Positions 1-44,042 of a DNA stretch of 44,042 nucleotides are shown in pieces. A model generated the notes under the pieces. It searched no databases. It was not told the DNA's origin and worked only from the letters and a program-made list of their open reading frames with translations. Numbering within the stretch: position 1 is the first letter of the stretch; every line of letters begins with the position of its first letter. The position numbers and the translations under genes are program-made. This DNA is from a virus, in the IMG/VR virus record IMGVR_UViG_3300012205_000001, positions 1 through 44,042 of that record; one strand, written 5' to 3'.

Positions 1-123
1 CGCTCGATGGAGCGTCCGGCCTCACGCGACCATTGGCCGGTCAATCGTCAGCAGCGGGGCGCCCGGATGGATGATCGCCCCCACCGATCGCGCAGATTGA
101 CCCCACTGCTCGATTTGCGTCTC
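1..123. repeat. Terminal direct repeat; identical copy at 43920..44042 (circular assembly overlap or terminal redundancy)
   Basis: Read directly: the first 123 nt of the window recur exactly as its last 123 nt. The repeat contains the 3' end of the minus-strand peptidase gene. Confidence 0.85.
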
Positions 124-542
124 CAGCCACCGGCGCCAGTCGTCATCACCGCCGGCGGGAAACGACCCAGCTTGCAGCAGATGCAGGACCGCGGGAAGCT
201 CCAGGTGCGGAATCTCGAACGATAGGGCTCGCAGACCGAGGCCGGTTCCGATCTCCTGGTACCGCTGCCACATGCCGGCGTCTGGCTCGGACCACGTCCA
301 GCCGTCGTCGACCTTGAAAACGTAGTCCACCGCCAGCCCGTATTGATGGAAGCTCTCCCAAGCGCGGGCCCGCGTAACGTGCCGGCCCGGCCGACGGCGT
401 AAAGCTCGGCTTGGCGGAACGGTGTGCGGCAGCATTCATAGGGCTGCAGCGGAATGCCGGCCTTATATAATTGCAGGTCGAGCTCGGGCAGTAAACCGCG
501 CAGCGCCGGGTGCAGAGTCAAGGTGCTAGGGTCGCGCGCCAT
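22..542 (-). CDS. Peptidase M15 (VanY / L-Ala-D-Glu peptidase-like) endolysin, apparently split by a frameshift near 360-380
   Basis: Track ORF 22..435 carries SFHQYGLAVDYV (SxHxxGxAxD zinc-binding signature) and FEIPH (ExxH). The N-terminal half RTPFRQAELYAVGRAGT lies in the overlapping frame of ORF 48..620, beginning at the Met at 540-542. The span 22..542 is 521 nt, not a multiple of 3. Confidence 0.6.
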
Positions 543-2545: not shown

Positions 2546-2577
2546 CGTCACCTGCCAGCAAAGCTGGGTCCTGTCAC
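2546..2577 (-). promoter_or_regulatory. Copy D of conserved 32-bp bipartite motif (GTGACA-N17-CAGGTGACG on minus strand) upstream of the lysis cassette
   Basis: Read directly; same length and spacing as copies at 6812..6843, 25473..25504 and 27706..27737. Confidence 0.4.
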
Positions 2578-4601
2578 GCGGTGAAGCTATCGGAGCGCCA
2601 GCGCACCAGAAAGCGCGTCTCCCATATTTCCCCACGCCGAAAAGTCGCCGCGCGGGTGCAGCCCTGGTAACGCACTTCGCTAATCCCACTCGTCGGCCAG
2701 GCGTAGCTGTCGGGGCGCTCCAGCACATCGCTGAATCGCTGCCCATCGCCCAGCGCATCGCGCATGACGGATTGCCGGTCACCGCCCCCCGCGTCGCCGC
2801 CGCCGCGCTGATACGCGACCCGAATGACGATCGTCGCCTCCCAATAGGCCTCCCCGATGGCCCGATTGCGCATCACGGGCGTGATGGCTTCGACGTCGGT
2901 GAAATAGTCGCCGTCCATCTTGCTGAGCGGCTCTTTGTCGAGTGTGAATCTGCAGCCGGACCGCAAACCGCCATCCGTAGAACTGGCCGACATGACAGCC
3001 GCCAGGCGGGCATCGATCTGAGTCAAGACGGCCGACAGGGGACAGAAGCGATTGTTGGTGGGCCCCGGCGTCACGCCGCCGCTGGTTGTGACGATCCCTG
3101 GACTGGCGGTCAGCCCGACGCCGCTGAGCGCCACCGCAAGCGACGGAACGATGCTGCCGGCCGCTGCGGTCGCGGCTGCGCCCGAGACGGCGACCGCTGT
3201 GCCGAACTGCAGGGTGCCGGCCAACGCGCTAGCCGCGTTGCCGGTGAGCGCCAGGGCCATCGCCAGTGCCACGCTGCCGACCCCGGCGGTCGCATTGCTC
3301 CCGACCGCCGGTACGTCGGTGGATGGCGTGACCGAGCCCGCCGAGGCAGTCGCCGCCTGGCCGGATAGTGCCACGGTGACATCCGAGCCGGCCGCGACCG
3401 TCGCGGCCCAATTGAGGGGGAAACGCGGCCGCCCGCCGATGGCCTGGGGTCGGCCGGGCCCGCGCAGAATAAACGGTACCGCTGCCGTGCGGCTGTCGGA
3501 GAGCAGGATCTGCGACCCAACATTACCGGCCGCCGTAGTGGCGGCCGCGCCCGTCAATGCGACATCGATGGCCGGCACCACCGTGCCGGCCGATACGGTC
3601 GCCCCCACGCCCGAGACCGGAACGGCCGTCGATGGTATGACGGTTCCGGCAGCGGCGGTTGACGCCTGGCCGGTCGCGGGGACATCGATCGCAATCGTGA
3701 CCGACCCTGCCGCCGTCGTGGCGGCCGAGCCCGTCAGTGCGACTGTGACGTCGCCCCCCGTCGGACTGGTCCATGTCAGGGGCTTAGCCGACGGCCCCAG
3801 GATGGGCATCGGCTTGCCGGGGCCACGCAGCAGGAAAGGTACCGCCATGGTGCGGGTGTCGAAGCCGGTGACCGGCGCGAAGAGATAGTTTTTTCGCGTC
3901 ATGGCCCGCATCAGGCGCGGCTTGGCGAGCGTCACATTTGGAACCGTCCGGATGATCGGTGCCCGCTCGCGAATGCTCAGGGTGCCGGTGTTGACGCCGA
4001 GGCCAGCGACCAGATCAACGCCGTTCAGATCATTGAGCGGATCGAGGAGGAGTGCATCATCACGGCGAATCTTGGTGAAGTCGGCGCCCCGGGCCAGCGC
4101 ATCGATCTCGTCCGGCCTGAGGCAGGTTCTCCACCAGCCGAATTGCTCTAACCAACAATCGGTCGTCGCGATCGTTGCATCAGTCCGCATCCAGAGCCGG
4201 ATATTGCTGGTCGTCGTCTGGCTGAAAGTACCGACCGGCGAACTGCTGGCCTGCTGTCGCCCGTCGATGTAGACGCGCATTGCCAGTGCGGCGCCGTCGT
4301 AGACCTGACAGACATGGATCCAATTCTTGTTCGTCCACTGAGCGGTCGTTGCCACCACCTGGCTACCGCTGCCGGTGATGACTTGCGCGCGGACGAGGTT
4401 GAATGCGCTGGCCGAGGGCGTGCCGACTGTAAAATCACCACTGACCGTCCCAACTCCGCGAGCGATGAATGCCCACTGAGCGACCGGCGTTATCTGAGGC
4501 TGGACCCAGATAGAGAGCGTATGGGACGTCGAGATGTCGAAGCGCCCATTGTTCGCATATTCGCGAAAGTTGGAACCGGAGGCGCCATTGTAGAGCGACA
4601 C
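2574..4601 (-). CDS. Tail fibre / receptor-binding protein: N-terminal LamG-like jellyroll domain, internally duplicated Ala/Thr/Gly/Val-rich shaft, C-terminal ~130-aa domain paralogous to gene 18515..19000
   Basis: N-terminus NKNWIHVCQVYDGAALAMRVYIDG resembles the LamG/concanavalin-like core. Two ~100-aa segments both begin AVPF(L/I)LRGPG. C-terminus aligns with the 18515 protein (FxLDKEP, VAYxRGGGDA, EVRYQG, GEIWExRF, WRSD). Starts at GTG. Confidence 0.6.
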   Translation of the reverse strand: MSLYNGASGSNFREYANNGRFDISTSHTLSIWVQPQITPVAQWAFIARGVGTVSGDFTVGTPSASAFNLVRAQVITGSGSQVVATTAQWTNKNWIHVCQVYDGAALAMRVYIDGRQQASSSPVGTFSQTTTSNIRLWMRTDATIATTDCWLEQFGWWRTCLRPDEIDALARGADFTKIRRDDALLLDPLNDLNGVDLVAGLGVNTGTLSIRERAPIIRTVPNVTLAKPRLMRAMTRKNYLFAPVTGFDTRTMAVPFLLRGPGKPMPILGPSAKPLTWTSPTGGDVTVALTGSAATTAAGSVTIAIDVPATGQASTAAAGTVIPSTAVPVSGVGATVSAGTVVPAIDVALTGAAATTAAGNVGSQILLSDSRTAAVPFILRGPGRPQAIGGRPRFPLNWAATVAAGSDVTVALSGQAATASAGSVTPSTDVPAVGSNATAGVGSVALAMALALTGNAASALAGTLQFGTAVAVSGAAATAAAGSIVPSLAVALSGVGLTASPGIVTTSGGVTPGPTNNRFCPLSAVLTQIDARLAAVMSASSTDGGLRSGCRFTLDKEPLSKMDGDYFTDVEAITPVMRNRAIGEAYWEATIVIRVAYQRGGGDAGGGDRQSVMRDALGDGQRFSDVLERPDSYAWPTSGISEVRYQGCTRAATFRRGEIWETRFLVRWRSDSFTA

Positions 4602-12335: not shown

Positions 12336-13219
12336 ACGGTCAATACGCTTTCGCCGTTCTCGGTCACGAGTAGCGGCACGCGGATGTCCCAGAAATTCAG
12401 GTTCGGTGGCACCATCGGGGTGGCGAGCAGCTGGCCCCGCAGCTCATCGGCCGGGAAATATTCGATGTAATTGTAGGGCGAGAAACTGCCAGCGCTGGGC
12501 GCGCTGCTGGTCAGCACTGTACGATCGCGCCACATCAGCAGGCGGCGTCCGAGCGCGGGGCCGTTCTGCCACCAGGTTTCGAAGTCTTCATTGACATGGG
12601 CGCCGCTATTTGCGCGTGCCAGGTAGTAGCCATCCATGCCGTTGAAGCGATATTCGGCGGCCCACTGAACGCCATTGCTTACGGCGGCGGCGGTCATGTC
12701 GGGGGCACGCTGGACGGCGCCGGCGCTTGTTGGGATGCCGTAGTTCAGCGCGGGATCGAAAAGTTGCGGTCCAGTCATGCTGATCGGCATCCCCGGCGAC
12801 CAGAGATATGGGCTGGCGTACGTCGCTGGCGTCGTTCCCCCGCCTACGTCGAATTGCGCCCCATCCCCCAAGGCATATTCCGCTGGTGTCGTCATTCCGG
12901 TGGCGAATGCCAGGGCCGCGCTTGCCTGAATGGTCAGCGTTCCGGGCGCCGTATGCGAAAATGTCACCTTTTGCGGGAATGTCGACGTAAGGGAGACGGT
13001 CCAGATCGCGGCGGTTGTGCTTAATGACGATGCGTCGAGCTGTGTCTTGATCTCCCTGAGAAGGGACTTTCCATTCGCGGAGGTTGTCCGATTGGAGACG
13101 AGATAATACCAAATCGCCGTCGAGACGGTTTCATATGTTCCGTTGTTGTCATAAATGTAGGCGTCTGCAGTAGTTGGCGGGAACCACTGCGAGACGAACG
13201 CCGGAATCGGAGTCGCCAT
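12332..13219 (-). CDS. Distal tail protein-like (295 aa), by position
   Basis: Immediately downstream of the tape measure protein; coupled by overlapping stop/start to neighbours. Confidence 0.4.
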   Translation of the reverse strand: MATPIPAFVSQWFPPTTADAYIYDNNGTYETVSTAIWYYLVSNRTTSANGKSLLREIKTQLDASSLSTTAAIWTVSLTSTFPQKVTFSHTAPGTLTIQASAALAFATGMTTPAEYALGDGAQFDVGGGTTPATYASPYLWSPGMPISMTGPQLFDPALNYGIPTSAGAVQRAPDMTAAAVSNGVQWAAEYRFNGMDGYYLARANSGAHVNEDFETWWQNGPALGRRLLMWRDRTVLTSSAPSAGSFSPYNYIEYFPADELRGQLLATPMVPPNLNFWDIRVPLLVTENGESVLTV

Positions 13220-16331: not shown

Positions 16332-17984
16332 TTACATCCATCCGACGTTGAAGCTGGGCAGCGTGGCGGCGAAGCTGTTGCCTCGGACGGCCTGCGGATG
16401 GATGGCCTGCCCATCGAGCGCGAACTCCCCTTGGCCGCCATTGTAGGTGAAGACCGCTTTGGTGAGCTGCAGGGCAGGCGCGCCGATGCAGAACGTCTCC
16501 TTCGGGTTGCCGCCCTTCTGGTAAAGGAAGTTCACCACGTCGCCGGCATGGAGGCGGTCAACCAGGTCCTTGAATGAGGCCAGATCGTCATTGTCGGCCA
16601 GGGCGGTAAAACTCATCGACACGGGCTCGACGTCCATCGCCATGCCGTCCATTTGATTGAATGCGTTCAGGCTTGGGCGTGGGATCGGCTTGAGACCGAA
16701 CATCACCTTCAGATCGCCGCAGATGACCTGTGTCCCGTCGATGCAGAGGCGGGCCCCCTTGCCGTCGACCGGCACCGTCGTGTCGAGCAGCGGAACCGGG
16801 AAGGAGGCCGACGTGATCGGATTGGTGATGTTGTATTCGATGCCCTCGGCAGCGACGTATTTCATCAGGAACTTGATCACCTGATCGCGTGCCACGTCGA
16901 GTTCGATGGTCGGCATGCAGCCATGGAAGACCTGTCGATAGAGCCCGCCGCGATAGAAGTCGAAGGTGCGGGTCCGGAAGTCGGTCGTCTTGAAACTGTA
17001 CCAGGCCGAAGCATAGATCGTGCTCGCCGCCGCCACCGACCCGGTCGTGATGACGCCGTTCTGCACGGTCAGTGTATTGGTGCTCTTGTTCAGCACCTGG
17101 AACGCCTCACCGGTGGCCAACAGGCCGAAGCCGCCGATGCTAAAGCCCGCCCCGCTGGCGGCGACGACCGTCGTTGCAGTCGAGCTGCTGACCGTCGAAC
17201 CGGTGTCGAGCGTCTCGGTCATGTGGTCGCCCAGAAGGCCGCCCATCTCCTGGGGCGGGACGGCGGCGGTGGCATTGCCGGCACTTGCCGTGAGCGGCCG
17301 CTGGGGCAGGATGATCTCCAGGGTCGATTCGGTGGTCACCGGCACGGCCGCGTCGGCGGCCTTCAGGCCCACAATTCGGCGCTGGACCACCTTGTGGGTC
17401 ATCGTCGCGGTGGCGGGCGCCTCCGGACGTAGCAGGGAGCGCAGCAGGTACAGCGCGCCGTCCCCGCCGGCCGCCGCCATGGTCGGCGTCGTGGTGAAGG
17501 TCCCGGTGCTGCTCAGAAAGCTCGCCACCTGATAGGCGCCGCCCGCATTCGTGCCGCCCTTGCCGACTAGGAACATGCCGCGATTCGTCGGAAAGCTGTC
17601 GGGCTCGTTCGTGATGCTCTGATGGGCCGAGCTGGTGACGGTTGTGGTCGTTGCCGTCGCAGTCGACCGCACAGGCACCTCGGCCGGCTGCCAGAGGGCC
17701 AACGTCGTCACGTTGGTGCCCGACGTCCAGGCGGCGTCGATCGTCGCCGTGGTCGTGCCGAGCACGAAGCTTTTGACCTGCCGCACCTGGCCGCGCGCGT
17801 CGCCATCCAGCGGCACGACGTAGTTGCCGATGCATGTGCTGGTCAGCGTCGCGCCGACGAATGTCGTCGTGGTGACCGATGAAGGGGTGATGGCGCGCGC
17901 CGTGGCCTCCTGGGAGGCTCTATACTGCGCCTCCGGGGCGGTCAGCAGTAGGTCGCGTGTTTGGATCCTTGGCTCGTTCGGCAT
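16332..17984 (-). CDS. Putative major tail protein (550 aa), Thr/Ala-rich
   Basis: Large structural-looking ORF directly upstream of the chaperone pair; assignment by gene order only. Confidence 0.35.
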   Translation of the reverse strand: MPNEPRIQTRDLLLTAPEAQYRASQEATARAITPSSVTTTTFVGATLTSTCIGNYVVPLDGDARGQVRQVKSFVLGTTTATIDAAWTSGTNVTTLALWQPAEVPVRSTATATTTTVTSSAHQSITNEPDSFPTNRGMFLVGKGGTNAGGAYQVASFLSSTGTFTTTPTMAAAGGDGALYLLRSLLRPEAPATATMTHKVVQRRIVGLKAADAAVPVTTESTLEIILPQRPLTASAGNATAAVPPQEMGGLLGDHMTETLDTGSTVSSSTATTVVAASGAGFSIGGFGLLATGEAFQVLNKSTNTLTVQNGVITTGSVAAASTIYASAWYSFKTTDFRTRTFDFYRGGLYRQVFHGCMPTIELDVARDQVIKFLMKYVAAEGIEYNITNPITSASFPVPLLDTTVPVDGKGARLCIDGTQVICGDLKVMFGLKPIPRPSLNAFNQMDGMAMDVEPVSMSFTALADNDDLASFKDLVDRLHAGDVVNFLYQKGGNPKETFCIGAPALQLTKAVFTYNGGQGEFALDGQAIHPQAVRGNSFAATLPSFNVGWM

Positions 17985-19860: not shown

Positions 19861-20319
19861 TCACTCAGTGGGGAACCCGATGAAGGTGCTGACCGTCGGC
19901 GCGGTGCCGGACGGGACCAGAGAGCGGGTGACGAAGCGGCTGAAGTTGTCGCCCGAGACGTTGAAGGCCTCGGTGCTCAGGACGCGCAGAGCACTGACCT
20001 GCGAGCCGCCCGCGCCGGTGGCGGCGATGGGCTGCCCCTTGTTCATGGCGCCCACCCACAGCCAGCGCGGCGAACTGGCAAATACGCCTTGGTCGGCGTA
20101 GCCCAACAGGTCGATGCGGCAGGAGACCGCACCCACCGTGTCGGCGTAATCCACGGCCACCCAGATGCGGTTGGCCGCCATGAGCGGGGCCACGCCGCCG
20201 GTCATGATGTCAGACAGCGCCTTGCCGGCCGCGCCACCAGACGGATAGGCGGTCGTGGTCGTTGAAGCGTTCAGGTCCTGGACCCAGCGGATCCCGCCTT
20301 CTGCGGTTTGGTACCCCAT
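19861..20319 (-). CDS. Hypothetical structural protein (152 aa)
   Basis: Track ORF; start abuts the stop of the upstream glycosyltransferase-like gene. Confidence 0.45.
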   Translation of the reverse strand: MGYQTAEGGIRWVQDLNASTTTTAYPSGGAAGKALSDIMTGGVAPLMAANRIWVAVDYADTVGAVSCRIDLLGYADQGVFASSPRWLWVGAMNKGQPIAATGAGGSQVSALRVLSTEAFNVSGDNFSRFVTRSLVPSGTAPTVSTFIGFPTE

Positions 20320-21152
20320 TACGCGGCCTCTTTGCGCTCGGCCTTGGCCTGCGCGTCAGCGAGCAGTTGCGGCACATGGTCCAGCGCCACGAACCCGTTG
20401 ATATAACGGACCTCGGTCGCGCCGACGGCGCCGCGCAGAGCGGCGGCCTGTTCCTTGAGCGTCGGCGAATCGTCCTTCCAGCTGTCTTCCCAGTGCTGCC
20501 AAGAGAAGGTAAGTGGACCAGTGTCCTTCATGTGCACGGTGCGAAAGCGCGGGTCGGCCAGCACCTTGAAGCCGGCCGCGCGCAGCCGCGTGCAGAAATC
20601 GTAGTCTTCGCCCACCTCGGACACGCTGCCGGTGAACGTTCGCTTGATGGCGAAGCGAAACCAGGGCAGGTCGTCGCGCGTGGCCTTGAGCGCCGAGACG
20701 CGGATCATCATGAAGCCCGTCGCCACCGTCGCTACTTCGACCGGCTGGAACGGAAAGCCGCTGATGACATGGCAGCACTCCTCCGGGTGCTCCTCATGCG
20801 CCACGGTCACCGTGGGGACCATGGGGCGCTCGCGCAGGTAGACCGCGCCGATCGCGCCCACCTCGGGATGCTGATCGAACAGCGCGTGCCAGACATCCAG
20901 CGGGTTGCCGCCGGGCCCGCCCGCCTCAATCCATAGATCATCATCATGCATGACCAGAAAGTCGTACCCGTCGTTGACCGCCTGGTCGGCGATTCGAGTG
21001 CGCGCCATCTGCACCGGGCCACACGTGAACGCGAAGCTGTCCCGGCCACGCTCGAACGTGCGGCAGCCCATCTCCATGTCGCGCATGCTTTTGACGTACG
21101 CGAGGGTTGGGTGTCGCCCGCTCGGCGTGGCGTAGAACAGCCGGTCGGCCAT
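20319..21152 (-). CDS. Glycosyltransferase-like protein (GT-A fold, DxD) embedded in the head-tail module
   Basis: DFLVMHDDDLWIE (DxD-type motif) and GEDYDFCTRLRAAGFKV, reminiscent of family-2 glycosyltransferases. Lies between capsid-proximal and tail genes on the same strand. Confidence 0.5.
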   Translation of the reverse strand: MADRLFYATPSGRHPTLAYVKSMRDMEMGCRTFERGRDSFAFTCGPVQMARTRIADQAVNDGYDFLVMHDDDLWIEAGGPGGNPLDVWHALFDQHPEVGAIGAVYLRERPMVPTVTVAHEEHPEECCHVISGFPFQPVEVATVATGFMMIRVSALKATRDDLPWFRFAIKRTFTGSVSEVGEDYDFCTRLRAAGFKVLADPRFRTVHMKDTGPLTFSWQHWEDSWKDDSPTLKEQAAALRGAVGATEVRYINGFVALDHVPQLLADAQAKAERKEAA

Positions 21153-21517
21153 CAGTAGCCCATCAACTCCACGATGAGGGACGTGTTGCTGATGTTCGCG
21201 ACGGTGTTGTCGACCCAGGTTCCGACGGCCGTGGTGACCGGCAGGCCCGTGTTCAGAAACTGCAGCAGCAGGGAGGTGGTGCTGGCCGTGGTAGCGCGGA
21301 TGACGCCGCTGGCGGCGATCCCAGCGTTCTGGATCGTAACTGACGGGTTGACGGCCAGCACCTTGCCGCCCATGAAAACCTTGTTGAGCGTGTGGGTGAA
21401 GGCCTCGCCGCCCGTGGAGTACGGGTTGGTGCAGCTCACGTTGTAGCGAAGGCGCTTAATGCCGTCGATGCCATTGGCCGAGTAGGTATCGTCGATGATT
21501 GTCCAGGTCGTAGTCAT
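21152..21517 (-). CDS. Hypothetical small structural protein (121 aa)
   Basis: Track ORF; beta-rich composition. Confidence 0.45.
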   Translation of the reverse strand: MTTTWTIIDDTYSANGIDGIKRLRYNVSCTNPYSTGGEAFTHTLNKVFMGGKVLAVNPSVTIQNAGIAASGVIRATTASTTSLLLQFLNTGLPVTTAVGTWVDNTVANISNTSLIVELMGY

Positions 21518-22119
21518 GGTCGTGCCTCAACGGGCTTGGCCGCCCGCGGTTGGGTCTGTTTCGGTGCTTCGCCCTTGAGCCGCTCGTACAGGGCTTGGAT
21601 CTCGCGGTGCTCCTCGGTCGCGCCGGGCTCGGCGGCGGCTCTTTCGAGCCAGCGCCACTCCACGATGTGACCGACAGAGCCGCTACGGCTCTTGATATTG
21701 CGGATGGGCCAGCCGGCTTTCAGCAGCAGACGCCGCGCCTGTCGCCCGTTGTCCTTCGTGTCATCGATGACGGCGTCAGTGCCGTGATCGACAACGCGCT
21801 TGATGGGCTTGGCGCGCAGATTCGTGCCGGGGATTCTCGGCTCATACCATTCTGACGACTTCATCGGCTGGCCATCAATGGAAACCAGGCGAACCGGCCC
21901 GACGTTGTAGATCTTTTCCGCCCCATACTGGGGCACATTCTGCGGCGAGGTTGAGACACCGTCCAGGACTTCGAACGCCATGGTCTGCAGCGCTTCATCC
22001 TGGAGCATGAGCTCCGTATAGGTGAACGTTCCCGCCTCCATGGCGCCGATGATGGCCCCTCGGACAGCAGCAACGCGGCCCTCTCTCGTCGGCAGTTGCA
22101 AGATCGAAATGTCGAGCAC
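21514..22119 (-). CDS. Hypothetical head module protein (201 aa)
   Basis: Track ORF directly downstream of the putative major capsid gene. Confidence 0.45.
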   Translation of the reverse strand: MLDISILQLPTREGRVAAVRGAIIGAMEAGTFTYTELMLQDEALQTMAFEVLDGVSTSPQNVPQYGAEKIYNVGPVRLVSIDGQPMKSSEWYEPRIPGTNLRAKPIKRVVDHGTDAVIDDTKDNGRQARRLLLKAGWPIRNIKSRSGSVGHIVEWRWLERAAAEPGATEEHREIQALYERLKGEAPKQTQPRAAKPVEARP

Positions 22120-22134: not shown

Positions 22135-23082
22135 CTATGTGGCGGAGTAGCCGGTGATCTTCCAAAAATGCTTCGGGTTATCCGCGCCGATCCCGAACGC
22201 CATGGTGATAAGCCATTTGTCCGAGTCGTCGGTCTTGCCCAACAGGTCGACCTTCATCTGCCGGCGCCATGACATGAACAGATCGCCCGTCTGGACGCCG
22301 AGAAAGATGCTGTTATCCAGGTCGCGGATCGGCGTCAGTGGCCGCCCGGCATAGGTGATGCCGGAGCTGTTGCCCTGCAGGTCGATGCTGTTGTTGCCCG
22401 ACATGATGCGGATCGAATTGTTTGCCGAGCCGGCCAGGCCGATGGCACCGCGCGCCTTCTGGATCTGCTTCGGCGACACCCATACCTGGTCGTAGCTGGA
22501 CGCATAGTCCGCGTCGCGGCTGAACCGGTCGGCGGCGTCGATGTCGGCCAGGGTCACCGTGGTACCGCTGCCCGTGGTCTCATATGCCTGAAACCAGGTA
22601 TAGGTGTTGCGGTCCAGGCCAGCGATGGTGCCGGCGCTGTCGCAGATGCCCTGGATGCCCACCGGCGACACCAGGCCCGTGCCAAGCGCGTCCGTGGATG
22701 CCAGGTCGATGACGTCGGCCATGCCCTTTTCGAACTCCTGGGCGAACTGGTCGAAGAACGCGGCCTGCGGATTGCCGTTGTTCAAAGTGTCGCGGGCGTG
22801 GCCCGTGATCTGAACGACGACCTTGTAGTAGGTGAATGGCCACTGCGCCGTGACGTATGACTGCGAGCCGGGAGCGCCCGCCGCGTCACCCTCGACGTAT
22901 CGGGTGACCGACGTGTTCTTCCCGTACTGCATCTTCCGGTTGAGCGTTGTGCCGCCGGTGTCGGGGCGCAGATTGAAGCGCCCGAGTACCTCACTATTGC
23001 GGAACGTGGTGTCGACCAGCCCGGCGATCGCCTGGGTTTTGGTCGCCGCGTCGATGGAACTAGCTGCCGTTACGCCTGCCAT
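22135..23082 (-). CDS. Putative major capsid protein (315 aa)
   Basis: Position immediately downstream of the scaffolding-like gene, with size typical of HK97-fold capsid proteins; by gene order only. Confidence 0.45.
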   Translation of the reverse strand: MAGVTAASSIDAATKTQAIAGLVDTTFRNSEVLGRFNLRPDTGGTTLNRKMQYGKNTSVTRYVEGDAAGAPGSQSYVTAQWPFTYYKVVVQITGHARDTLNNGNPQAAFFDQFAQEFEKGMADVIDLASTDALGTGLVSPVGIQGICDSAGTIAGLDRNTYTWFQAYETTGSGTTVTLADIDAADRFSRDADYASSYDQVWVSPKQIQKARGAIGLAGSANNSIRIMSGNNSIDLQGNSSGITYAGRPLTPIRDLDNSIFLGVQTGDLFMSWRRQMKVDLLGKTDDSDKWLITMAFGIGADNPKHFWKITGYSAT

Positions 23083-27705: not shown

Positions 27706-27737
27706 GGTCACCTGCCACCAGCAGCTACCGCGGTCAA
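27706..27737 (-). promoter_or_regulatory. Copy C of conserved 32-bp bipartite motif (TTGACC-N17-CAGGTGACC)
   Basis: TTGACCGCGGTAGCTGCTGGTGGCAGGTGACC on the minus strand, directly upstream of the putative small terminase start. Confidence 0.4.
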
Positions 27738-28073
27738 ATGCCGCCACAACTGGGGCCGCACTCTCTTGATCGCCAGTCGCGACGTCACGATGCGCATGCC
27801 GTCGACAAACTCCACCGTAATGCGGTTCGCGGCGCCATCCGGAACCCAGCCCTGCTTCTGGGCCTCATACACGACGCGGCAGAGCTGGCCCTTGCGTTGT
27901 GGCAGTACGCGTCGTAGGAACCAGCGATAGGCAAATTCCGATGCGGGCGGCGGCGCGATGGCCGCTGGGGTCAGTTTGTTTTTCCCCAAGGGGGCCATTT
28001 CTCCGGATGGAAGGTCTCCTGTGTTTCGCCCTTCTTGAGCATCCAGATCGGGCGGCCGAGCTCGAATCGCCAC
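27708..28073 (-). CDS. Hypothetical protein (probably starts internally, about 95 aa)
   Basis: Track ORF; N-terminus implausible. Overlaps 27971..28282 in another frame, so one of the two may be spurious in the overlap. Confidence 0.3.
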   Translation of the reverse strand: MAIRARPPDLDAQEGRNTGDLPSGEMAPLGKNKLTPAAIAPPPASEFAYRWFLRRVLPQRKGQLCRVVYEAQKQGWVPDGAANRITVEFVDGMRIVTSRLAIKRVRPQLWRHLTAVAAGGR

Positions 28074-28282
28074 AGGCGGCCCATCAGCATGCGCGCCGGC
28101 GGCCGGATGCAGATGTCGCTCACGGCCCGATGCGCGACTCCCATGCTGCGCTCGACCTTTTCGTCGCTCGTCATGGCGCCATGCTGGACCACAACCTTGA
28201 CGTGTCCGTGGTGCTGGCAGTCAGGGCAGGCCCAGGGCAAGAACCATTCGATCGGGCCCTTTTGCGGCATGGTGCCTACCAC
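27971..28282 (-). CDS. Hypothetical small protein with Cys/His cluster (103 aa)
   Basis: PWACPDCQHHGHVKVV suggests a metal-binding motif; stop/start is close to the upstream glycosyltransferase. Confidence 0.35.
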   Translation of the reverse strand: MVGTMPQKGPIEWFLPWACPDCQHHGHVKVVVQHGAMTSDEKVERSMGVAHRAVSDICIRPPARMLMGRLWRFELGRPIWMLKKGETQETFHPEKWPPWGKTN

Positions 28283-29148
28283 GGGATTTCACCAAAGCGA
28301 CTCAGCATCTGTCGGTGCTCCTCCTCGCTCTGCTGGCGCGCGCCAAGGTCGCCCTGAATCATCGCCATCCCGCCGGCGGGATTGGTGGTCCGGATAACGA
28401 GTGGCTCACGGTCGCCAGAATTGACGATAACTGAATGCCGAGAGATATTCTGCAGCCAGCCATGGCGGACGGTCAATGGTTGGCCATAAAAGTAAACCAC
28501 GGGCGCGTCCTCGTCTACTAGGTGCGCGCGCTTCACGCCGTGCTTGTTCGCGCGCCCCAGCCATTCGGTGTCGACGTGGAATCGAAATCCCTCGTCCATC
28601 GGGCCGATCTCGTCCCATACGGCGCGATGCATGAGCCAGCCCGACGGCGTGGCGAAGTCATTGACGCGCTGGAAGTTGCCGGCCACGTCGACCTCGCGCT
28701 GATTACTGGTCACCATGTCGACGCGGGAGAGCCACGGGATTTGTGCAGCCAGCTTTTCGGGGCACCAGATGTCATCGTCTTCCAGGAACGCCAGCACGTC
28801 GCCGGTGGATGCGCGCACAGCGGCATTGACGGCGGCAGCTTGGCCGCCCGCGCCAGCGAATACCTGCGTAACGCCCTTGAAGCGCTCAGGTAGCAGCCCT
28901 GTGTTCAGCTGATCGCGAAAGGCTTGCATACCCATCGTCGCTGCCGCGATCGGATTGGCTGCGTTGACCTTTATCGGCGAATCCATTCCCACGACGAATT
29001 CAATTTCATGTTCGCCCGCGGCCGACTGCCGGTGCACCGACATCAGCGCGCGGTCGAGATAGAGATTCCCAGTCTCGCTCATAGGATTGACCTGCAAGCG
29101 ACTAGGTGTAATGACGCTGATTTTCACCGGCACACATCCGGAATCCAA
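28276..29148 (-). CDS. Family-2-type glycosyltransferase (GT-A fold)
   Basis: N-terminal ISVITPS, then GQAAAVNAAVRASTGDVLAFLEDDDIW (nucleotide-sugar binding region with DxD-type EDDD), typical of GT2 enzymes. Confidence 0.65.
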   Translation of the reverse strand: MDSGCVPVKISVITPSRLQVNPMSETGNLYLDRALMSVHRQSAAGEHEIEFVVGMDSPIKVNAANPIAAATMGMQAFRDQLNTGLLPERFKGVTQVFAGAGGQAAAVNAAVRASTGDVLAFLEDDDIWCPEKLAAQIPWLSRVDMVTSNQREVDVAGNFQRVNDFATPSGWLMHRAVWDEIGPMDEGFRFHVDTEWLGRANKHGVKRAHLVDEDAPVVYFYGQPLTVRHGWLQNISRHSVIVNSGDREPLVIRTTNPAGGMAMIQGDLGARQQSEEEHRQMLSRFGEIPW

Positions 29149-29422
29149 TGGTCATCGTCAACGCTGGGCTGCCATGGTTCGGACGTCTCAAGACGCGGCG
29201 GGGCGCACTGAAGACAGGTACAGCCAACAGAATGCGGGGATGTCATCAGCGCGTTTTCTTTGACGGCCAGGCGCAGGCGGCCAAGTGCATGATCGATTGT
29301 GTCTGCGGGTCGCTTCTCAGCAACGGACGTTGACATATGCGGCAGCGGGCCGTCTACCGTCTGTTTGCCATGCCACCATCCATCTTGATGAGGCCATTTA
29401 CATCCAACAAATCCACACATGA

Positions 29423-30868
29423 TCATCGCTGCCGCTCCAGTTCTTCGACGTACGGTCGATAGATAATCTCTCCCTGCCGCTTGGTCACTTGGTATTCGGG
29501 CCGCGTGATGACCGTGTGGCCATCGGCCAATTCGCGGTATCCCGAATAGTGAAAAGCCACGAGCGAGCGGTTGCCGAAGTACGGAACGCCGCCCCGGACA
29601 TCAAGCGCGCGGCCATGGATCGCCCACGGGCCAAGGTTTGCTCCTGGAGCCATAACCACATGCGCGCCATGCTTTTCCGGCCACGCGTCAAGGTATTTTT
29701 GGTCGCCATAACGCAACTGCCTTTCGGGAATTGGGACCTGCTCCACACGGTCATAACACCACTCTCGGCATTGCGCCGCCCACTCTTCGACAATCTCACG
29801 ATTCGCGATATAGACGAGGCCCACATTGTATTTTCCAAATACCTCATGCGTCTCAACTGTCGGCCCCGGTAACCCGTGCGATGCGCTGGCGAAGTTGTGC
29901 GGGAACACTGCCGCAGGTGCGGCGCCAATTTCTGCAAAGACTGGCTCTGGCGATGAATGGAACATTATGTCAGCATCGACGTAACAGACGGGACGGCCGG
30001 TCGACTTCATGACCTCTGCGATCCACCACGGACCGAGCGTCCACATCGTCTCGACCCTGGTGCGTTCCGGTCCAGGCAGGATGCCGATCGTGCCCGGCAG
30101 CTGCGTCGGGCATCCAACTGATTCTGCCCAATCACGCACGCCTTCGTCCCACGACAGAATATGCAACTCGAACGGCTGGCAGTGTCGCAGCATTGAGGCG
30201 TGGAGCGCCTTGAGGCGAGTGAGATAATTGCTATCGGCATATGTGGCGTAGACGCGCGGCCGCGCACAGACATAGGTCGTCGATCCACCGTCAGCTCGGA
30301 AAAAATCGCGACCTTGGAATCCAGTCTCCGCCATCGCGGCCATGAGGTCCATATGATTGACGTCCCAGGCCCGGAACGTCTGCCCGTAGCCATGCGTCTC
30401 GGTGCGTTTTGTCGCTATCGCCAGCGGCACACGATGAAGAATCACCCAGCGTCGCGACCGCGCGCATAGATCGGCAAGATGTATCTTCCAGTCGTCGGCA
30501 TGCATGAGGGCGCAGCCGTCGATCACGACGTCAAACGAACTCGGCAATCCGCATAAATCAAATGGCGGACGATCATGGCTGGCGAAGCAAACGAATTCGC
30601 TCTCCGGGTATCGCTCGAGCGCAACCTTGATCGCCGCTGGGCTGATGTCACAGCCGCCATAGCTTCGATATGCTATCCCCTGCCGATCCAGGACCTCACG
30701 GTTGTACCCGCTCGCGCAGCCGACCTCCCATAGCTCGCCGGGGCATTGCGTGGAGCGCACCGCATCGGCCAGGGCGCGAAACTGGATCGGCAGCGGGTCT
30801 TGCTGCAGCTGCTGATCTACCAGTTCACGCTGGGCGGCGGCGATCTCAGGCAGCATCCAGGGGTTCAC
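29423..30868 (-). CDS. Two-domain protein: N-terminal class I SAM-dependent methyltransferase-like, C-terminal nucleotide-sugar transferase-like
   Basis: LWEVGCASGYN (glycine-rich motif I-like) and DVVIDGCALMH in the N-terminal half; CYVDADIMF (DxD-like) in the C-terminal half. Confidence 0.5.
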   Translation of the reverse strand: MNPWMLPEIAAAQRELVDQQLQQDPLPIQFRALADAVRSTQCPGELWEVGCASGYNREVLDRQGIAYRSYGGCDISPAAIKVALERYPESEFVCFASHDRPPFDLCGLPSSFDVVIDGCALMHADDWKIHLADLCARSRRWVILHRVPLAIATKRTETHGYGQTFRAWDVNHMDLMAAMAETGFQGRDFFRADGGSTTYVCARPRVYATYADSNYLTRLKALHASMLRHCQPFELHILSWDEGVRDWAESVGCPTQLPGTIGILPGPERTRVETMWTLGPWWIAEVMKSTGRPVCYVDADIMFHSSPEPVFAEIGAAPAAVFPHNFASASHGLPGPTVETHEVFGKYNVGLVYIANREIVEEWAAQCREWCYDRVEQVPIPERQLRYGDQKYLDAWPEKHGAHVVMAPGANLGPWAIHGRALDVRGGVPYFGNRSLVAFHYSGYRELADGHTVITRPEYQVTKRQGEIIYRPYVEELERQR

Positions 30869-31872
30869 AAACTCCTCGCCAGCTCGACGAGCCGCGGAAT
30901 GCGCGATTCATAGGTGTGCGCGAGCAGAACATCTTGGGCCGCCTTCTCATCATCACCATAAGCGGCCTTCATGATCCAATCGCGCGCGTGCGCGGCGCTG
31001 ACAAACTCATTCGGCCCCCACCAGAATTGATCGATGAAAGCTTCGCCATCGCTCACCGGCTCAGCTCCCATCCCGGCCGCTTCATAGAGTCGCATGGCAT
31101 TCGCCGCGCCCTTCGTCCATTCGGCATGGACGTTAAAGACGGTCCTTGCTCGCGCCAGCGTTTTGAAATATTCGCGCCCAAATACCGGCGGCATCACGGT
31201 GACGATATCTTTCAGCTCCTCCAGCAACTGCGTCCGGCGTACGTGGTTAGGCCCGACGGTCCCGACAAAGATGCAGGCTAAGTCACGCTGGACGCCCATG
31301 CCGCAGGCCCGCGCACGGGTATCGAACGCGAGTGGCATATATTCACCCCGACAGCCCTTCGCATGCGCTTCGTCGATCATCCAGGGAATCGATGAGATGA
31401 CCAGGTCATAGGCGGGCGATCCATCGCGCTTGCGGACATCCCATGGCATCGGATTGCAGATGGCGGCAACCTGGGCGATCCGCTTGCCCTGCCCCTTTAT
31501 CGGCATCCCATAATTGTCGAGCACGAAGGCGACGCAGTCAGGCCCATCGATCTCAAGCGCAAACGCGCCGCCCGATACATTCACTGAGGTCGCATCCTCG
31601 CCGAACTCCCGCAGATAGTGCGAATAGCTATCCAGGTGTGAGCAGAAGAACGCCTCGTGGCAATAGAGCGAATCGGCAACTAGCCATCTCATCGCGTCCT
31701 CACGAATGTCCACGCATCGGAATATGCTTCGGGCATCGCCTCGTCTCGAATGCCGAAAAACATCCGCTGCGAGTCGGCACTCGCAAAGCCGATGCATTGC
31801 CTCGCAGCGCCGTTGATTATGACGGCGGCATTTAGATGCCGACCATCGTGGTCGAGTTCGCCGGTGATCCAA
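30865..31872 (-). CDS. Glycosyltransferase-like protein (GT-B/CgeB-like C-terminal region); likely starts at internal Met near 31692
   Basis: ACIFVGTVGPNHVRRTQLLEELKDI and NAMRLYEAAGMGA resemble the C-terminal domain of group-1-type glycosyltransferases. N-terminal 60 residues are Arg/Cys-rich and overlap the upstream gene. Confidence 0.4.
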   Translation of the reverse strand: MDHRRTRPRWSASKCRRHNQRRCEAMHRLCECRLAADVFRHSRRGDARSIFRCVDIREDAMRWLVADSLYCHEAFFCSHLDSYSHYLREFGEDATSVNVSGGAFALEIDGPDCVAFVLDNYGMPIKGQGKRIAQVAAICNPMPWDVRKRDGSPAYDLVISSIPWMIDEAHAKGCRGEYMPLAFDTRARACGMGVQRDLACIFVGTVGPNHVRRTQLLEELKDIVTVMPPVFGREYFKTLARARTVFNVHAEWTKGAANAMRLYEAAGMGAEPVSDGEAFIDQFWWGPNEFVSAAHARDWIMKAAYGDDEKAAQDVLLAHTYESRIPRLVELARSL

Positions 31873-32090
31873 TAGGTCGTCTCGCCATCGGCAGTCGGCC
31901 CGATGCTCATCGAGAAATTTGGGCCTGATGCCTTGATTATGGCCCGCACCTGGACTTTCGCGGTCGCGCTATACCAGACGCCGACGAGCGGCGTGGCGAG
32001 TTGCTCCCTGGTGGCGGCCGGAATATCGTCGCCACAGCCAAATACCAGCGGCCCGCACCAAAACAAAATCATCAACATCAATGCTCTCAT
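31689..32090 (-). CDS. Secreted protein or lipoprotein (about 133 aa from MRALMLMILFWCGPLVFGCG)
   Basis: Hydrophobic signal-like N-terminus followed by Cys; track ORF 31689..32120. Confidence 0.4.
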   Translation of the reverse strand: MRALMLMILFWCGPLVFGCGDDIPAATREQLATPLVGVWYSATAKVQVRAIIKASGPNFSMSIGPTADGETTYWITGELDHDGRHLNAAVIINGAARQCIGFASADSQRMFFGIRDEAMPEAYSDAWTFVRTR

Positions 32091-35434: not shown

Positions 35435-36331
35435 TCAAGCCCGCATCTCCAGAAGTTCTTTCAGGATCGCCGCGATCTTTGGCCAGTATTTTTCATCCGA
35501 CGCGGCCATAGCGGCCCGATCGGCCCGAGCGGCCCGAGCGGCCCGAGCGGCCAGAGCGGCCCGATCGGCCAGAGCGGCCAGATCGGCCAGAGCGGCCCGA
35601 GCGGCCCGAGCGGCCCGATCGGCCCGAGCGGCCAGAGCGGCCAGATCGGCCAGAGCGGCCCGATCGGCCAGAGCGGCCCGAGCGGCCAGAGCGGCCCGAG
35701 CGGCCCGAGCGGCCCGAGCGGCCCGATCGGCCCGAGCGGCCAGAGCGGCCAGATCGGCCAGAGCGGCCCGATCGGCCAGAGCGGCCCGAGCGGCCCGAGC
35801 GGCCCGAGCGGCCAGATCGGCCAGAGCGGCCCGAGCGGCCAGAGCGGCCAGAGCGGCCAGAGCGGCCAGAGCGGCCCGAGCGGCCCGAGCGGCCAGAGGA
35901 GGATGCTTTCGAAGCTCTCCTGCCAACCGCGACAGTTCTCGCGTGTGTTCACTGTCGCCGTCGCAAAGCGCAACCGTCGCATCGATCGCATCGGGTAGGA
36001 TCTCGCGCAGGCCCCAGTCAACGAGACGGACCGCGCGCTTCTCCTCGATCTCATCCGTCGACCGAGAGAACAGCAGCGCTGGCCCGAACTCTGGCGCGAG
36101 ATGCTTTCTCCAAGCCGCGCTCGCGTCCTGAATGCCGACAGTGAACCCATGTAGGACCTGCGAGGCCGTCTCTGGACACGAATACAACCTCGGGTCGAGG
36201 TCGACCCATGCGCGGAATTCCTGCCATGCGCAACGGTCACCAGGCTTACCCGTGCCGCAACCCGCGCGCAGATTCAGCGAGTCAAGATACTCGGGAGTCA
36301 CGTAAGCTGGTAGCTTCTGGATCTCGGTCAT
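35435..36331 (-). CDS. Hypothetical protein with a tripeptide repeat tract A-(A/D)-(R/L) of about 130 aa
   Basis: N-terminal non-repetitive domain (MTEIQKLPAYVTPEYLDSLNLRAGCGTGKPGDRCAWQEF), then AARAALAALAALAAL...ADRAAMAAS encoded by the 9-bp repeat array, then a short C-terminal tail. Confidence 0.5.
   Translation of the reverse strand: MTEIQKLPAYVTPEYLDSLNLRAGCGTGKPGDRCAWQEFRAWVDLDPRLYSCPETASQVLHGFTVGIQDASAAWRKHLAPEFGPALLFSRSTDEIEEKRAVRLVDWGLREILPDAIDATVALCDGDSEHTRELSRLAGELRKHPPLAARAARAALAALAALAALAARAALADLAARAARAARAALADRAALADLAALAARADRAARAARAARAALAARAALADRAALADLAALAARADRAARAARAALADLAALADRAALAARAARAARADRAAMAASDEKYWPKIAAILKELLEMRA
35500..35897. repeat. 9-bp tandem repeat array (about 44 units; variants cggcccgag, cggcccgat, cggccagag, cggccagat)
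   Basis: Read directly from 35500-35897; in-frame within the gene 35435..36331. Confidence 0.85.
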
Positions 36332-40894: not shown

Positions 40895-41110
40895 TCACGA
40901 TTGCACCCCCATCGCCGCCGGTTGCCACTCGCCCAGGATGATCATGCCCTCCCAAAATAGCGCACATCGCGCGTGGACCCTGGTCCCGGCGACGATCAGC
41001 AGCGCGCCATCGATGTCGGTCAGGCATGCTTCGCAGGTGTCGGGTATGGCGAGTGAGCAAACGCCGCAGCTGGTACCGCAGCAGGACGGGGCGCAGTCAG
41101 CGTAGGTCAT
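40895..41110 (-). CDS. Hypothetical Cys-rich small protein (71 aa)
   Basis: CAPSCCGTSCGVCSLAIPDTCEAC; overlaps 40716..41060 in another frame, so only one is likely real. Confidence 0.3.
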   Translation of the reverse strand: MTYADCAPSCCGTSCGVCSLAIPDTCEACLTDIDGALLIVAGTRVHARCALFWEGMIILGEWQPAAMGVQS

Positions 41111-42273
41111 GTGTCACTCTCCGCCGCGCATGCCTTGATGTCTTCCAACGCCCGTTCATTGCTCGCGAAAAAATGCGGCACGCGGCCGGTGGATGCGCGA
41201 TAGATCATCGTCGCCGCACGCTGCGAATCATACTTCGCCTCCAACTTGGCCCCCGCTTCGCCCGCATGGACTATCGCCCAACCGCCGATACAGTGTGTCA
41301 TTGTGCAAGAGTGCCAGGTAGACATTTCGAGCCGCCCGCCGCCGCCAGTGACAGATTCCAGAATCTTGGCGTCCAGTCTATCAACCACAGGCACGTCCGG
41401 GTTGCGCTCGCGGTATTTCAGCATCCGCGCGCGACGGGCCGCCTTGACTTCTTCGGGCGTCGTCGGGCGGACGTATGGCTTCGCTGGATCTGAGACCGGA
41501 ATGGTTATGCCTATGGCGCCGTCGAGGCTGGCGCCGACGAGGCTGGCGCCGTCGAGGTTGGCGCCGACGAGGCTGGCGCCGTCGAGGTTGGCGCGGCCGA
41601 GGCTGGCGCCGACGAGGCTGGCGCCGACGAGGCTGGCGCCGTCGAGGTTGGCGCCGTCGAGGCTGGCGCCGACGAGGCTGGCGCCGACGAGGCTGGCGCC
41701 GACGAGGCTGGCGCCGTCGAGGTTGGCGCCGACGAGGCTGGCGCCGACGAGGCTGGCGCCGACGAGGCTGGCGCGGCCGAGGCTGGCGCCGTCGAGGTTG
41801 GCGCCGTCGAGGCTGGCGCCGACGAGGCTGGCGCCGACGAGGTTGGCGCCGTCGAGGCTGGCGCCGTCGAGGTTGGCGCCGTCGAGGTTGGCGCCGTCGA
41901 GGTTGGCGCCGTCGAGGCTGGCGCCGACGAGGTTGGCGCCGACGAGGCTGGCGCCGTCGAGGCTGGCGCCGTCGAGGTTGGCGCCGTCGAGGCTGGCGCC
42001 GTCGAGGTTGGCGCGGCCGAGGTTGGCGCGGCCGAGGCTGGCGCCGTCGAGGTTGGCGCCGTCGAGGTTGGCGCCGTCGAGGTTGGCGCCGTCGAGGTTG
42101 GCGCCGTCGAGGTTGGCGCCGTCGAGGTTGGCGCCGTCGAGGTTGGCGCGTTTTCCGCCAACCTCGTCTCTGCGCCACATGTCGTGTAGCCGTCGGACTT
42201 CGGCCAGGTCGGCTGTCGATATCGTGCGTAGTTCCATGGTCACTCCTTGATCAAGTGTGAAATCAGCCGCCAA
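41107..42273 (-). CDS. Pentapeptide-repeat protein (about 43 consecutive A-(N/S)-L-(D/V/G)-(G/R) repeats) with C-terminal globular domain
   Basis: ANLDGANLDGANLDG...ASLVGASLDG tract; pentapeptide-repeat family signature A(D/N)LXX. C-terminal ~130 aa are non-repetitive and Cys/His-containing. Confidence 0.7.
   Translation of the reverse strand: MAADFTLDQGVTMELRTISTADLAEVRRLHDMWRRDEVGGKRANLDGANLDGANLDGANLDGANLDGANLDGANLDGASLGRANLGRANLDGASLDGANLDGASLDGASLVGANLVGASLDGANLDGANLDGANLDGASLDGANLVGASLVGASLDGANLDGASLGRASLVGASLVGASLVGANLDGASLVGASLVGASLVGASLDGANLDGASLVGASLVGASLGRANLDGASLVGANLDGASLVGASLDGAIGITIPVSDPAKPYVRPTTPEEVKAARRARMLKYRERNPDVPVVDRLDAKILESVTGGGGRLEMSTWHSCTMTHCIGGWAIVHAGEAGAKLEAKYDSQRAATMIYRASTGRVPHFFASNERALEDIKACAAESDT
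41510..42150. repeat. 15-bp tandem repeat array (units ggcgccgacgaggct / ggcgccgtcgaggtt and variants) encoding the pentapeptide repeats
   Basis: Read directly; more than 40 consecutive 15-nt units. Confidence 0.85.
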
Positions 42274-43705: not shown

Positions 43706-44042
43706 GCAGCCTGGCATGAAAAGCATAGTCCAGCACAGGATTAGCCGGGTCGTCACGCCCGCATGAACCGTCGCTGCGTGTAGCACCAGACCCATCCGGG
43801 ACCAAACGCGCAAAACGCCCACCGCGCTCTCACCATCATCTCGTCAGGTACGATCGGTCCGCCCTTGATCGCATCCTGGCCGCAGTCCTGGCACACGGCC
43901 CGGGTGGCCGCGTCGTCAACGCTCGATGGAGCGTCCGGCCTCACGCGACCATTGGCCGGTCAATCGTCAGCAGCGGGGCGCCCGGATGGATGATCGCCCC
44001 CACCGATCGCGCAGATTGACCCCACTGCTCGATTTGCGTCTC

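Follow-up and report, generated by a model that had tools for sequence, protein, structure and literature searches.

The virus record IMGVR_UViG_3300012205_000001 of IMG/VR, a stretch of 44,042 nucleotides that is called the window here, encodes four soluble glycosyltransferases (GTs) with intact catalytic motifs which form one co-inherited set: a CgeB-like GT-B enzyme, a GT8-like domain fused to an S-adenosylmethionine (SAM)-dependent methyltransferase, and two GT-A enzymes of the GT2 clan. Three of them directly precede the genes for the small and large terminase subunits (TerS, TerL) on the same strand and with overlapping start and stop codons, and the fourth is found two genes past the capsid gene. 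We propose, with a probability that we put a little short of even, that these enzymes constitute a phage-encoded cytoplasmic pathway which would attach a short methylated glycan to the virion proteins of the phage itself. The original prediction, made without database searches, had left open whether virion proteins, the host surface or something else is modified; this is still so, with virion glycosylation now as the best-supported option. The window is a complete, circularly assembled phage genome of ~43.9 kb from a soil metagenome, since its first 123 bp (1-123) are an exact direct repeat of positions 43920-44042 and independent assemblies of about 43.9-44.1 kb have the same gene content.

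All four consecutive minus-strand genes that had been predicted beside the terminase are present, although a fifth open reading frame (ORF) at 29124-29426 had been omitted and the GT-B ORF is shorter than assumed. Their location was described correctly, with replication genes (DnaA_C-like, N6/N4 DNA methylase) on one side and TerS/TerL on the other. Each of the three enzyme calls made for the cluster survived the searches with hidden Markov models (HMMs), structure prediction and fold searches. The GT-B-like gene (30865-31692, minus strand) encodes a compact GT4-type enzyme of 275 aa from the CgeB-like PF13524 family. PF13524 (Glyco_trans_1_2) matches it with 29.7 bits at a cutoff of 25, two Rossmann-like domains are present, and the hhalign alignment with a CgeB-annotated family covers nearly the full length at a probability of 100%. 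The length of 275 aa is preferred because the gene caller and the ATGA overlap with the upstream lipoprotein gene agree on it; a 335-aa ORF reaching 31872 was rejected as over-extended, its first 60 residues overlapping the lipoprotein gene and occurring in no homolog. CgeB of Bacillus subtilis, with 317 aa, is likewise a compact GT-B enzyme of the PF13524 family. The identity of 24-28%, however, refers to automatically annotated metagenomic proteins and not to B. subtilis CgeB itself. CgeB has been proposed to glycosylate Thr112 of the CgeA hexamer in the self-assembling crust layer of the Bacillus spore (PMC13577073).

The neighbouring gene (29423-30868, minus strand) encodes a fusion protein of 481 aa, in which a class I SAM methyltransferase (residues ~1-195) precedes a retaining GT-A domain of the GT8/GT24-like type (~200-481). 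A methyltransferase-like N-terminus paired with a DxD-containing sugar-transferase-like C-terminus had been expected, and both parts hold up. Methyltransf_12 and Methyltransf_11 exceed their cutoffs over residues 48-132, including the motif 'LWEVGCASGYN', and residues 1-195 show a Rossmann-like fold, the GxGxG motif I and the acidic residue after strand 2; these motifs are conserved in 32/32 full-length fusions. The C-terminal domain has a GT-A fold with the DxD and the metal-binding His residues, and D298-x-D300, H324 and H440 are invariant in 64 homologs. We name it GT8-like and not GT8, because Pfam Glyco_transf_8 (PF01501) gave no match at E up to 0.1 and PDB profiles of glycogenin matched only with E 0.003-0.2. 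Its homologs form a family of their own without a Pfam model, one distant member of which carries PF03407. Among the structural neighbours are the protein-directed enzymes glycogenin, GlyE, UGGT and Skp1 GalT. Compared with LgtC, glycogenin, GlyE and the catalytic domain of UGGT, the identity is 10-16%, and the phage domain differs from them by its fusion to an N-terminal methyltransferase. Methyltransferase and GT domains within one polypeptide are found in WsaE of Geobacillus, WbdD of Escherichia coli and A064R of the chlorovirus PBCV-1, where the methyl group goes on a sugar handled by the same protein; A064R acts on the viral capsid glycan. These proteins differ in domain order and GT families and belong to S-layer, O-antigen and eukaryotic-virus N-glycan pathways, respectively.

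For the gene at 28276-29148 (minus strand), a GT2-like enzyme with an EDDD motif had been predicted. It encodes an inverting GT-A enzyme of the GT2 family, matched partially (residues 101-164) by PF00535 with 33.3 bits against a cutoff of 23.3 (E 6e-8). The motif 'LEDDDIW' is conserved in homologs, and the strand 'KISVITPSRL' and 'FLEDDD' are conserved in the window and its relatives L001 and L002. The likeliest start by comparison with homologs is the GTG at 29127 (283 aa), not 29148, because it matches their N-terminus 'MKLSVIVPS' and gives the GTGA overlap. Partial matches to the TuaG and rhamnosyltransferase models of NCBIfam and a PDB match to 9jma, a PglI-type glucosyltransferase (E 0.003), were obtained. 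The ~150 homologs lie mostly on phage-size contigs; one in Vineibacter terrae was discarded as a clue to function, being an uninformative orphan among catabolic genes.

The extra glycosyltransferase that had been noted in the structural module is a second GT2-clan GT-A-like protein (20319-21152, minus strand, 277 aa), located in the head-tail module two genes after the capsid gene. It has weak Pfam matches to Glyco_trans_2_3 and Glyco_tranf_2_3 and matches PHROG 1574 (E 3e-17), and its DDD, E-D-x-D and H207 are invariant among homologs. A PDB profile search with its alignment gave no match. No transmembrane segment was found in any of the four GTs. In 50,697 cultured-phage records, this protein gave only faint matches of ~25% identity (PHROG 1574), to unannotated genes of Stenotrophomonas phage DLP_6 (L067, 4959-5816), just upstream of the sliding-clamp gene, and of Sinorhizobium phage phiM12 (L068, 4962-5939), between gp46 and the sliding-clamp gene gp45.

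A connection of the cluster to the structural-module GT2 had been suggested and is strongly supported by co-occurrence, first of all in a phage with an unrelated backbone. The 45-kb contig L059 encodes Terminase_6N, SU10_portal, Phage_capsid_4, an adaptor and a pectate-lyase tailspike, none of which resembles its counterpart in the window. Its genes are arranged in the order TerL, methyltransferase, fusion of methyltransferase and GT8-like domain, GT2, methyltransferase, homolog of the structural-module GT2 (30% identity), portal, GT-B (60%), DegT and major capsid protein (MCP). When all ORFs of a 20.8-kb L059 locus were compared by blastp with the whole window, exactly four genes were common to both, and these are the four glycosyltransferases, at 30-60% identity. 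Therefore, the cluster and the GT2 at 20319-21152 are parts of one functional unit, and this unit has moved between unrelated phage backbones; the comparison also places the home of the unit among the head-assembly genes. Further members of the L059 backbone were not found in IMG/VR scans with its portal and fusion. The window GT-B, 60% identical to the L059 copy, is only about 50% identical to most copies in its own backbone.

Within this backbone, loci around TerL relatives were gathered from IMG/VR, JGI metagenomes and public assemblies. Fusion, GT-B and GT2 have roughly 50-150 homologs each, nearly all on phage-size metagenomic contigs, and neither the region as a whole nor the fusion, GT2 or GT-B matched any of the cultured-phage records in nucleotide and protein searches. 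All relatives with a TerL at least 46% identical and with enough flanking sequence carry the fusion and the GT2 upstream of TerL (L001, L002, L010/L032, L011/L033, L012, L031, L034, L058, L060-L064). The homolog of the structural-module GT2 follows the capsid gene wherever the contig reaches that far (L009/L030, L011/L033, L012, L034), and in L011, L012 and L034 it is found together with the upstream cluster. Relatives with TerL identities of 42% or less (L013, L037, L041, L042, L050) have none of these genes. Presence in all of the former and absence from the latter mark the module, as judged from these loci, as a fixed trait of the clade and not as sporadic cargo, so that the earlier view of an accessory cargo cluster is given up: it is fixed in this clade and common to an unrelated backbone. 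The distribution of the module points to the virion as its target without proving it.

In all relatives that carry it, the module is larger and comprises, in this order, a Methyltransf_24-like methyltransferase, a zinc-ribbon-like 70-aa protein, the GT-B, a second methyltransferase-like protein, a DegT/DnrJ/EryC1 aminotransferase, the fusion, a small variable ORF and the GT2. The window, which has neither the aminotransferase nor the two extra methyltransferases and the zinc-ribbon protein, is a reduced version of it. Two of the relatives, L058 and L060, encode the methyltransferase and GT parts of the fusion as separate genes. HNH homing-endonuclease genes have been inserted repeatedly into the sugar module (L058:13320-13814; L060:11029-11622 and 12502-12918; L061:11758-12294 and 17262-17711), the one of L058 separating the methyltransferase and GT halves of the fusion. 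The relatives also carry assorted DNA methylases (C5, Dam, N6/N4), and L060 has a Mom-like DNA-modification gene (PF25680, L060:116-772) upstream of its replication genes, so the DNA-modification content varies in the clade.

The loss of DegT and two methyltransferases would suit a decaying remnant without function, as would the GC content at third codon positions (GC3) of the cluster genes, which is 0.67-0.73 compared to 0.77-0.89 for structural and replication genes (0.85 for the structural-module GT2) and would fit a more recent arrival of the upstream cluster. As an alternative to decay, the acceptor might be a host protein or small molecule, whose modification might, for instance, neutralise a defence signal or change a metabolite; the Foldseek neighbours of the methyltransferase domain include the NDP-aminosugar N-methyltransferases CalS10, TylM1 and KedS8 of antibiotic pathways. 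These fold matches are, however, generic (13-16% identity). Decay is at odds with four intact and tightly coupled GT ORFs with invariant catalytic residues. That different lineages have kept the same four enzymes, with identities of 30-60%, speaks for selection on a joint function. We consider an acceptor of this other kind, or decay, improbable.

For virion glycosylation, we go beyond the observed gene set, folds, motifs, co-inheritance and positions in that we infer an acceptor and an order of reactions. The phage enzymes would use nucleotide-sugars of the host, and the CgeB-like GT-B would put the first sugar on Ser/Thr of a structural protein during assembly. The chain may then be extended by the two GT2 enzymes and the GT8-like domain, and the methyltransferase domain would methylate the sugar added by the GT domain fused to it, probably as a cap. 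In the relatives, the DegT aminotransferase and the two further methyltransferases would add amino and methyl decorations, steps that would have been lost in the window phage. The resulting glycan coat would alter surface properties of the particle, such as stability, adhesion or recognition.

For comparison, we used the known virion-glycosylation cassettes of actinobacteriophages, gp35-38 of Corndog and gp108-110 of Che8 (Freeman et al. 2023, cited in PMC11600133 and PMC12363180). According to these two sources, the experimentally characterised cassette of cluster O mycobacteriophages consists of an O-methyltransferase followed by three GTs, which modify capsid and tail tube. We verified that gp35-38 of Corndog lie between the portal gene gp34 and the protease and capsid genes gp39 and gp41. 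L059 has the same layout, with sugar genes amid terminase, portal and capsid genes, and that of the window is close. If such a cassette is understood as a methyltransferase plus at least two GTs within or beside head genes, the window contains one, as its cluster abuts TerS/TerL and one GT follows the MCP gene. The window phage further resembles Corndog in soluble GTs with a methyltransferase, a seemingly lytic lifestyle and structural proteins in the cytoplasm as the proposed target. Nevertheless, we read this likeness as analogy and not homology, because there is no sequence similarity: gp35-38 and the window enzymes gave no blastp or phmmer match better than E 0.05. The families differ as well. 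Corndog has a TylF/Methyltransf_24 O-methyltransferase, GT2-like and GT25-like enzymes, whereas the window has a Methyltransf_11/12::GT8-like fusion, a CgeB-like GT-B and two GT2-clan enzymes, and its relatives, unlike Corndog, add a DegT aminotransferase. The system had been taken as a candidate for an undescribed one. This is right at the level of sequence, as the enzyme families of the cassette were not seen in cultured phages; it is not right at the level of function, as PMC11600133 and PMC12363180 describe an analogous cassette of a methyltransferase and three GTs in mycobacteriophages, and GT-plus-methyltransferase cassettes as such are thus already known.

A wider proposition, which we regard as quite possible while rating it below an even chance by a clear step, is that phages infecting Gram-negative bacteria of the soil build a methylated glycan coat on their own particles, including an amino sugar in most relatives, by a four-glycosyltransferase module that is unrelated in sequence to the mycobacteriophage one and moves as a unit between unrelated backbones. 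If true, virion glycosylation would have arisen independently more than once and would be an exchangeable phage trait rather than a peculiarity of actinobacteriophages. To our knowledge, experimental proof of it is limited to a few mycobacteriophages, whose recognition by antibodies it changes. With a second module that is not homologous to theirs, phage particles coated with glycans would turn out to be more widespread in nature. In addition, new enzymes are on offer with the methyltransferase::GT8-like fusion and the minimal CgeB-like GT-B, and the reduced four-enzyme set of the window genome would be a convenient minimal set for reconstitution.

Several observations weigh against virion proteins as the target. 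The acceptor was not found: a capsid alignment of module-bearing phages with a module-free relative revealed no module-specific Ser/Thr-rich tail or insertion, and the two backbones share only the four GTs and no non-enzymatic protein that could serve as a common acceptor. Neither the Corndog enzymes nor those of any cultured phage show sequence homology to the set. The window cluster lies at the boundary of replication and packaging genes and not inside the head block, its GC3 is below that of the structural genes, and where the structural-module GT2 has faint relatives in T4-like phages, these belong to replication modules. Moreover, the combination of GT4, GT8 and GT2 enzymes is also typical of the lipopolysaccharide (LPS) core, whose enzymes likewise have no transmembrane helices. 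It must also be said that the case is built wholly on metagenomic sequence.

A further point against it comes from bacteria, where homologs of the GT8-like domain are found in surface-polysaccharide loci. One (L020) is part of a Wzm/Wzt O-polysaccharide-type locus together with methyltransferases, a Glyco_trans_1_2::methyltransferase fusion, DegT, GT2 and Bac_transf; another immediately follows a methyltransferase gene in an exopolysaccharide (EPS) locus that also encodes Wzy_C and exosortase. In the L020 locus, from Candidatus Solibacter, the fusion is a 649-aa protein (L020:12910-14859) of a PF13524 (CgeB-like) GT and a methyltransferase; the phage uses both families in a different fusion arrangement. 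By these relationships, the phage enzymes clearly have their origin in envelope-glycan machinery, and an envelope glycan could be their substrate even now. In that case, the soluble GTs would extend lipid-linked intermediates of LPS core, ABC-transporter-type O-polysaccharide or EPS at the cytoplasmic face of the inner membrane during infection and the methyltransferase would cap them, and the changed cell surface would block superinfection or keep progeny from being trapped on debris. LgtC, an LPS enzyme, is structurally as close to the GT8-like domain as the protein-directed enzymes are, and methyl caps set by methyltransferase domains end the chains in the WbdD and WsaE pathways. Tail proteins that look glycan-directed (a ConA-like lectin at 2574-4601, the pectate-lyase fold of L059, an apiosidase-like protein of L001) and a co-transcribed lipoprotein with predicted export to the envelope are in line with such a function.

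Set against this remodelling of the host envelope, the complete genome contains no priming phosphoglycosyl transferase, flippase, polymerase, ligase or ABC exporter. Around the L020 homolog, Wzm/Wzt exporter and priming transferase are present, so an ABC-transporter O-polysaccharide system is not what the phage encodes, although its enzymes could plug into such a pathway of the host. Without an integrase, lasting seroconversion is unavailable to the phage. The known phage modifiers of O-antigen (Gtr, Oac) are membrane proteins of temperate phages; Gtr-type seroconversion was rejected, as the genome has no integral-membrane GtrA/GtrB/GtrC-like proteins and no integrase Pfam match. Finally, the genes are fixed in or beside head-assembly genes in two unrelated backbones, one gene lying within the head-tail block, which is unusual for host-surface morons. 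We judge envelope remodelling, the main rival to virion glycosylation, to be rather unlikely. If it were the true function, the window would represent a seemingly virulent phage with a multi-enzyme pathway for surface-glycan remodelling, which would be unusual.

Since the cluster adjoins DNA-metabolism genes and the terminase, glycosylation of the phage DNA, with hypermodified bases as protection against restriction, has to be considered too. DNA-modifying GT clusters have been reported near terminase and structural genes, and according to Pyle et al. such glycosylation needs an enzyme making 5-hydroxymethylcytosine (5hmC) or 5-hydroxymethyluracil (5hmU), either ThyS-like or a C5 methyltransferase plus 5mYOX (bioRxiv 10.1101/2023.12.21.572611). 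Like the window, the T4 a-gt/b-gt and the 5mYOX/ThyS GT clusters contain phage GT-A and GT-B enzymes that stem from polysaccharide enzymes of the host and are in some cases encoded close to the terminase or to structural genes. Also compatible with DNA as acceptor are the position between gp46 and gp45 that faint homologs of the structural-module GT2 have in T4-like phages, a sub-threshold TAGT match of the L059 copy (E 0.04), and the C5, Dam or Mom-type modification genes of relatives. However, called genes and Pfam and PHROG scans across the complete genome revealed no integrase, DNA polymerase or thymidylate-synthase-like gene, and none for a thymidylate-synthase-like hydroxymethylase, C5-cytosine methyltransferase, TET/JBP-type dioxygenase or 5mYOX; the sole DNA methyltransferase is of the N6/N4 type. 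Therefore, the known acceptor bases cannot be made. Fold matches to T4 enzymes rank below many generic GT4 enzymes, the bacterial homologs lie in polysaccharide loci, and the DNA glycans described are far simpler than a set of one aminotransferase, three sugar-type methyltransferases and four GTs would imply. DNA glycosylation was rejected as the main explanation and is in our view highly improbable.

Almost all genes of the phage are on the minus strand. In gene order, a replication and recombination block (PD-(D/E)XK nuclease, AAA_24 ATPase, N6/N4 DNA methylase, DnaA_C-like helix-turn-helix protein) comes before the sugar cluster. It is followed by two small conserved genes, TerS, TerL (PHROG terminase), portal, scaffold and SU10-like capsid protein, and then by head-tail genes, tape measure, tail genes and lysis genes. 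The capsid gene occupies 22135-23082, and genes for neighbouring head proteins 21152-22119. The five ORFs of the cluster are chained by 4-nt overlaps (ATGA, GTGA, ATGA, GTGA), and no convincing internal promoters or terminators were found within it; it is therefore a single, tightly coupled transcription unit that continues into TerS/TerL.

The first gene of the unit (31689-32090, minus strand, 133 aa), identified by the gene caller, had been predicted to encode a signal-peptide protein. This is correct in so far as it encodes a lipoprotein with the conserved lipobox L-x-G-C-G, a hydrophobic N-terminal stretch (Kyte-Doolittle hydropathy over 19 residues, KD19, 1.80) being followed by 'LVFGCG'; the protein is, however, not a part of the conserved module and is restricted to the nearest subclade. 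Its stop codon shares an ATGA with the start codon of the GT-B gene, and the two genes are co-transcribed and translationally coupled. The family is rare, with 12 relatives among 1.84 billion representatives, and the lipobox is found in 12/12. Two homologs (P0347, P0353) lie on Logan contigs of 10,274 and 8,214 bp, the same sizes as the contigs with the closest fusion, GT-B and GT2 homologs. In L001, L002, L058 and L059-L064 the gene is absent, and in the window it fills the slot that the first methyltransferase has in relatives. The association of the lipoprotein with the module probably exists within the nearest subclade alone, and the protein may possibly act as an exclusion factor or serve a function unrelated to sugars.

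Between fusion and GT2, the ORF at 29124-29426 (minus strand) would encode a putative Cys-rich protein of 100 aa. At its two ends it shares an ATGA with the stop of the fusion and a GTGA with the start of the GT2; it was not predicted by the gene caller and has a GC3 of 0.55 compared to 0.67-0.89 for its neighbours, and its coding status is uncertain. The same slot is occupied in five relatives (L001:11470-11748, L002:11446-11619, L058:14683-15054, L059:3513-3680, L060:15957-16298). Together with that of the window, these ORFs encode 55-123 aa without detectable mutual similarity; in the window and L001, where the boundaries were checked, 4-nt overlaps exist at both ends. Between GT2 and TerS, the two small conserved genes (27708-28282, minus strand, about 99 and 96 aa as called) have no Pfam or PHROG match. 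By tblastn they were detected with 28-43% identity in L001, L002, L010, L011, L034 and L058-L062 with the exception of L059, and they are conserved neighbours in the window-type backbone only.

As to the host, 185,579 species genomes were scanned for TerL, and the only two matches, both distant (36-37%), were on short contigs of metagenome-assembled genomes from Casimicrobiaceae and Polyangia, which is too weak to name it. The host is probably a diderm soil bacterium and not an actinobacterium. A second lipoprotein gene, with an 'LTLASC' lipobox (1243-1563, also 22-435, minus strand), has an endolysin-like gene and genes of three small membrane proteins (1838-2532) in its vicinity; it resembles a spanin-type lysis gene and suggests a diderm host. 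The tail protein at 2574-4601 (minus strand, 675 aa) combines an N-terminal ConA-like lectin domain (Laminin_G_3, E 3e-12) with internal Ala/Thr/Gly-rich repeats and is likely, by its domains, a glycan-binding receptor protein. In the early region, a pentapeptide-repeat protein of 388 aa (41107-42273, minus strand, Pfam E 8e-58) may be a DNA-mimic or anti-defence protein. The gene at 35435-36331 (minus strand, 298 aa), for which no Pfam or PHROG match was obtained, includes an array (35497-35898) in which a 9-nt unit is repeated 44.6 times in tandem with 88% matches; the copies read as Ala-Arg-Ala/Ala-Leu-Ala triplets and on the opposite strand as collagen-like Gly-Pro-Ser/Gly-Gln-Ser.

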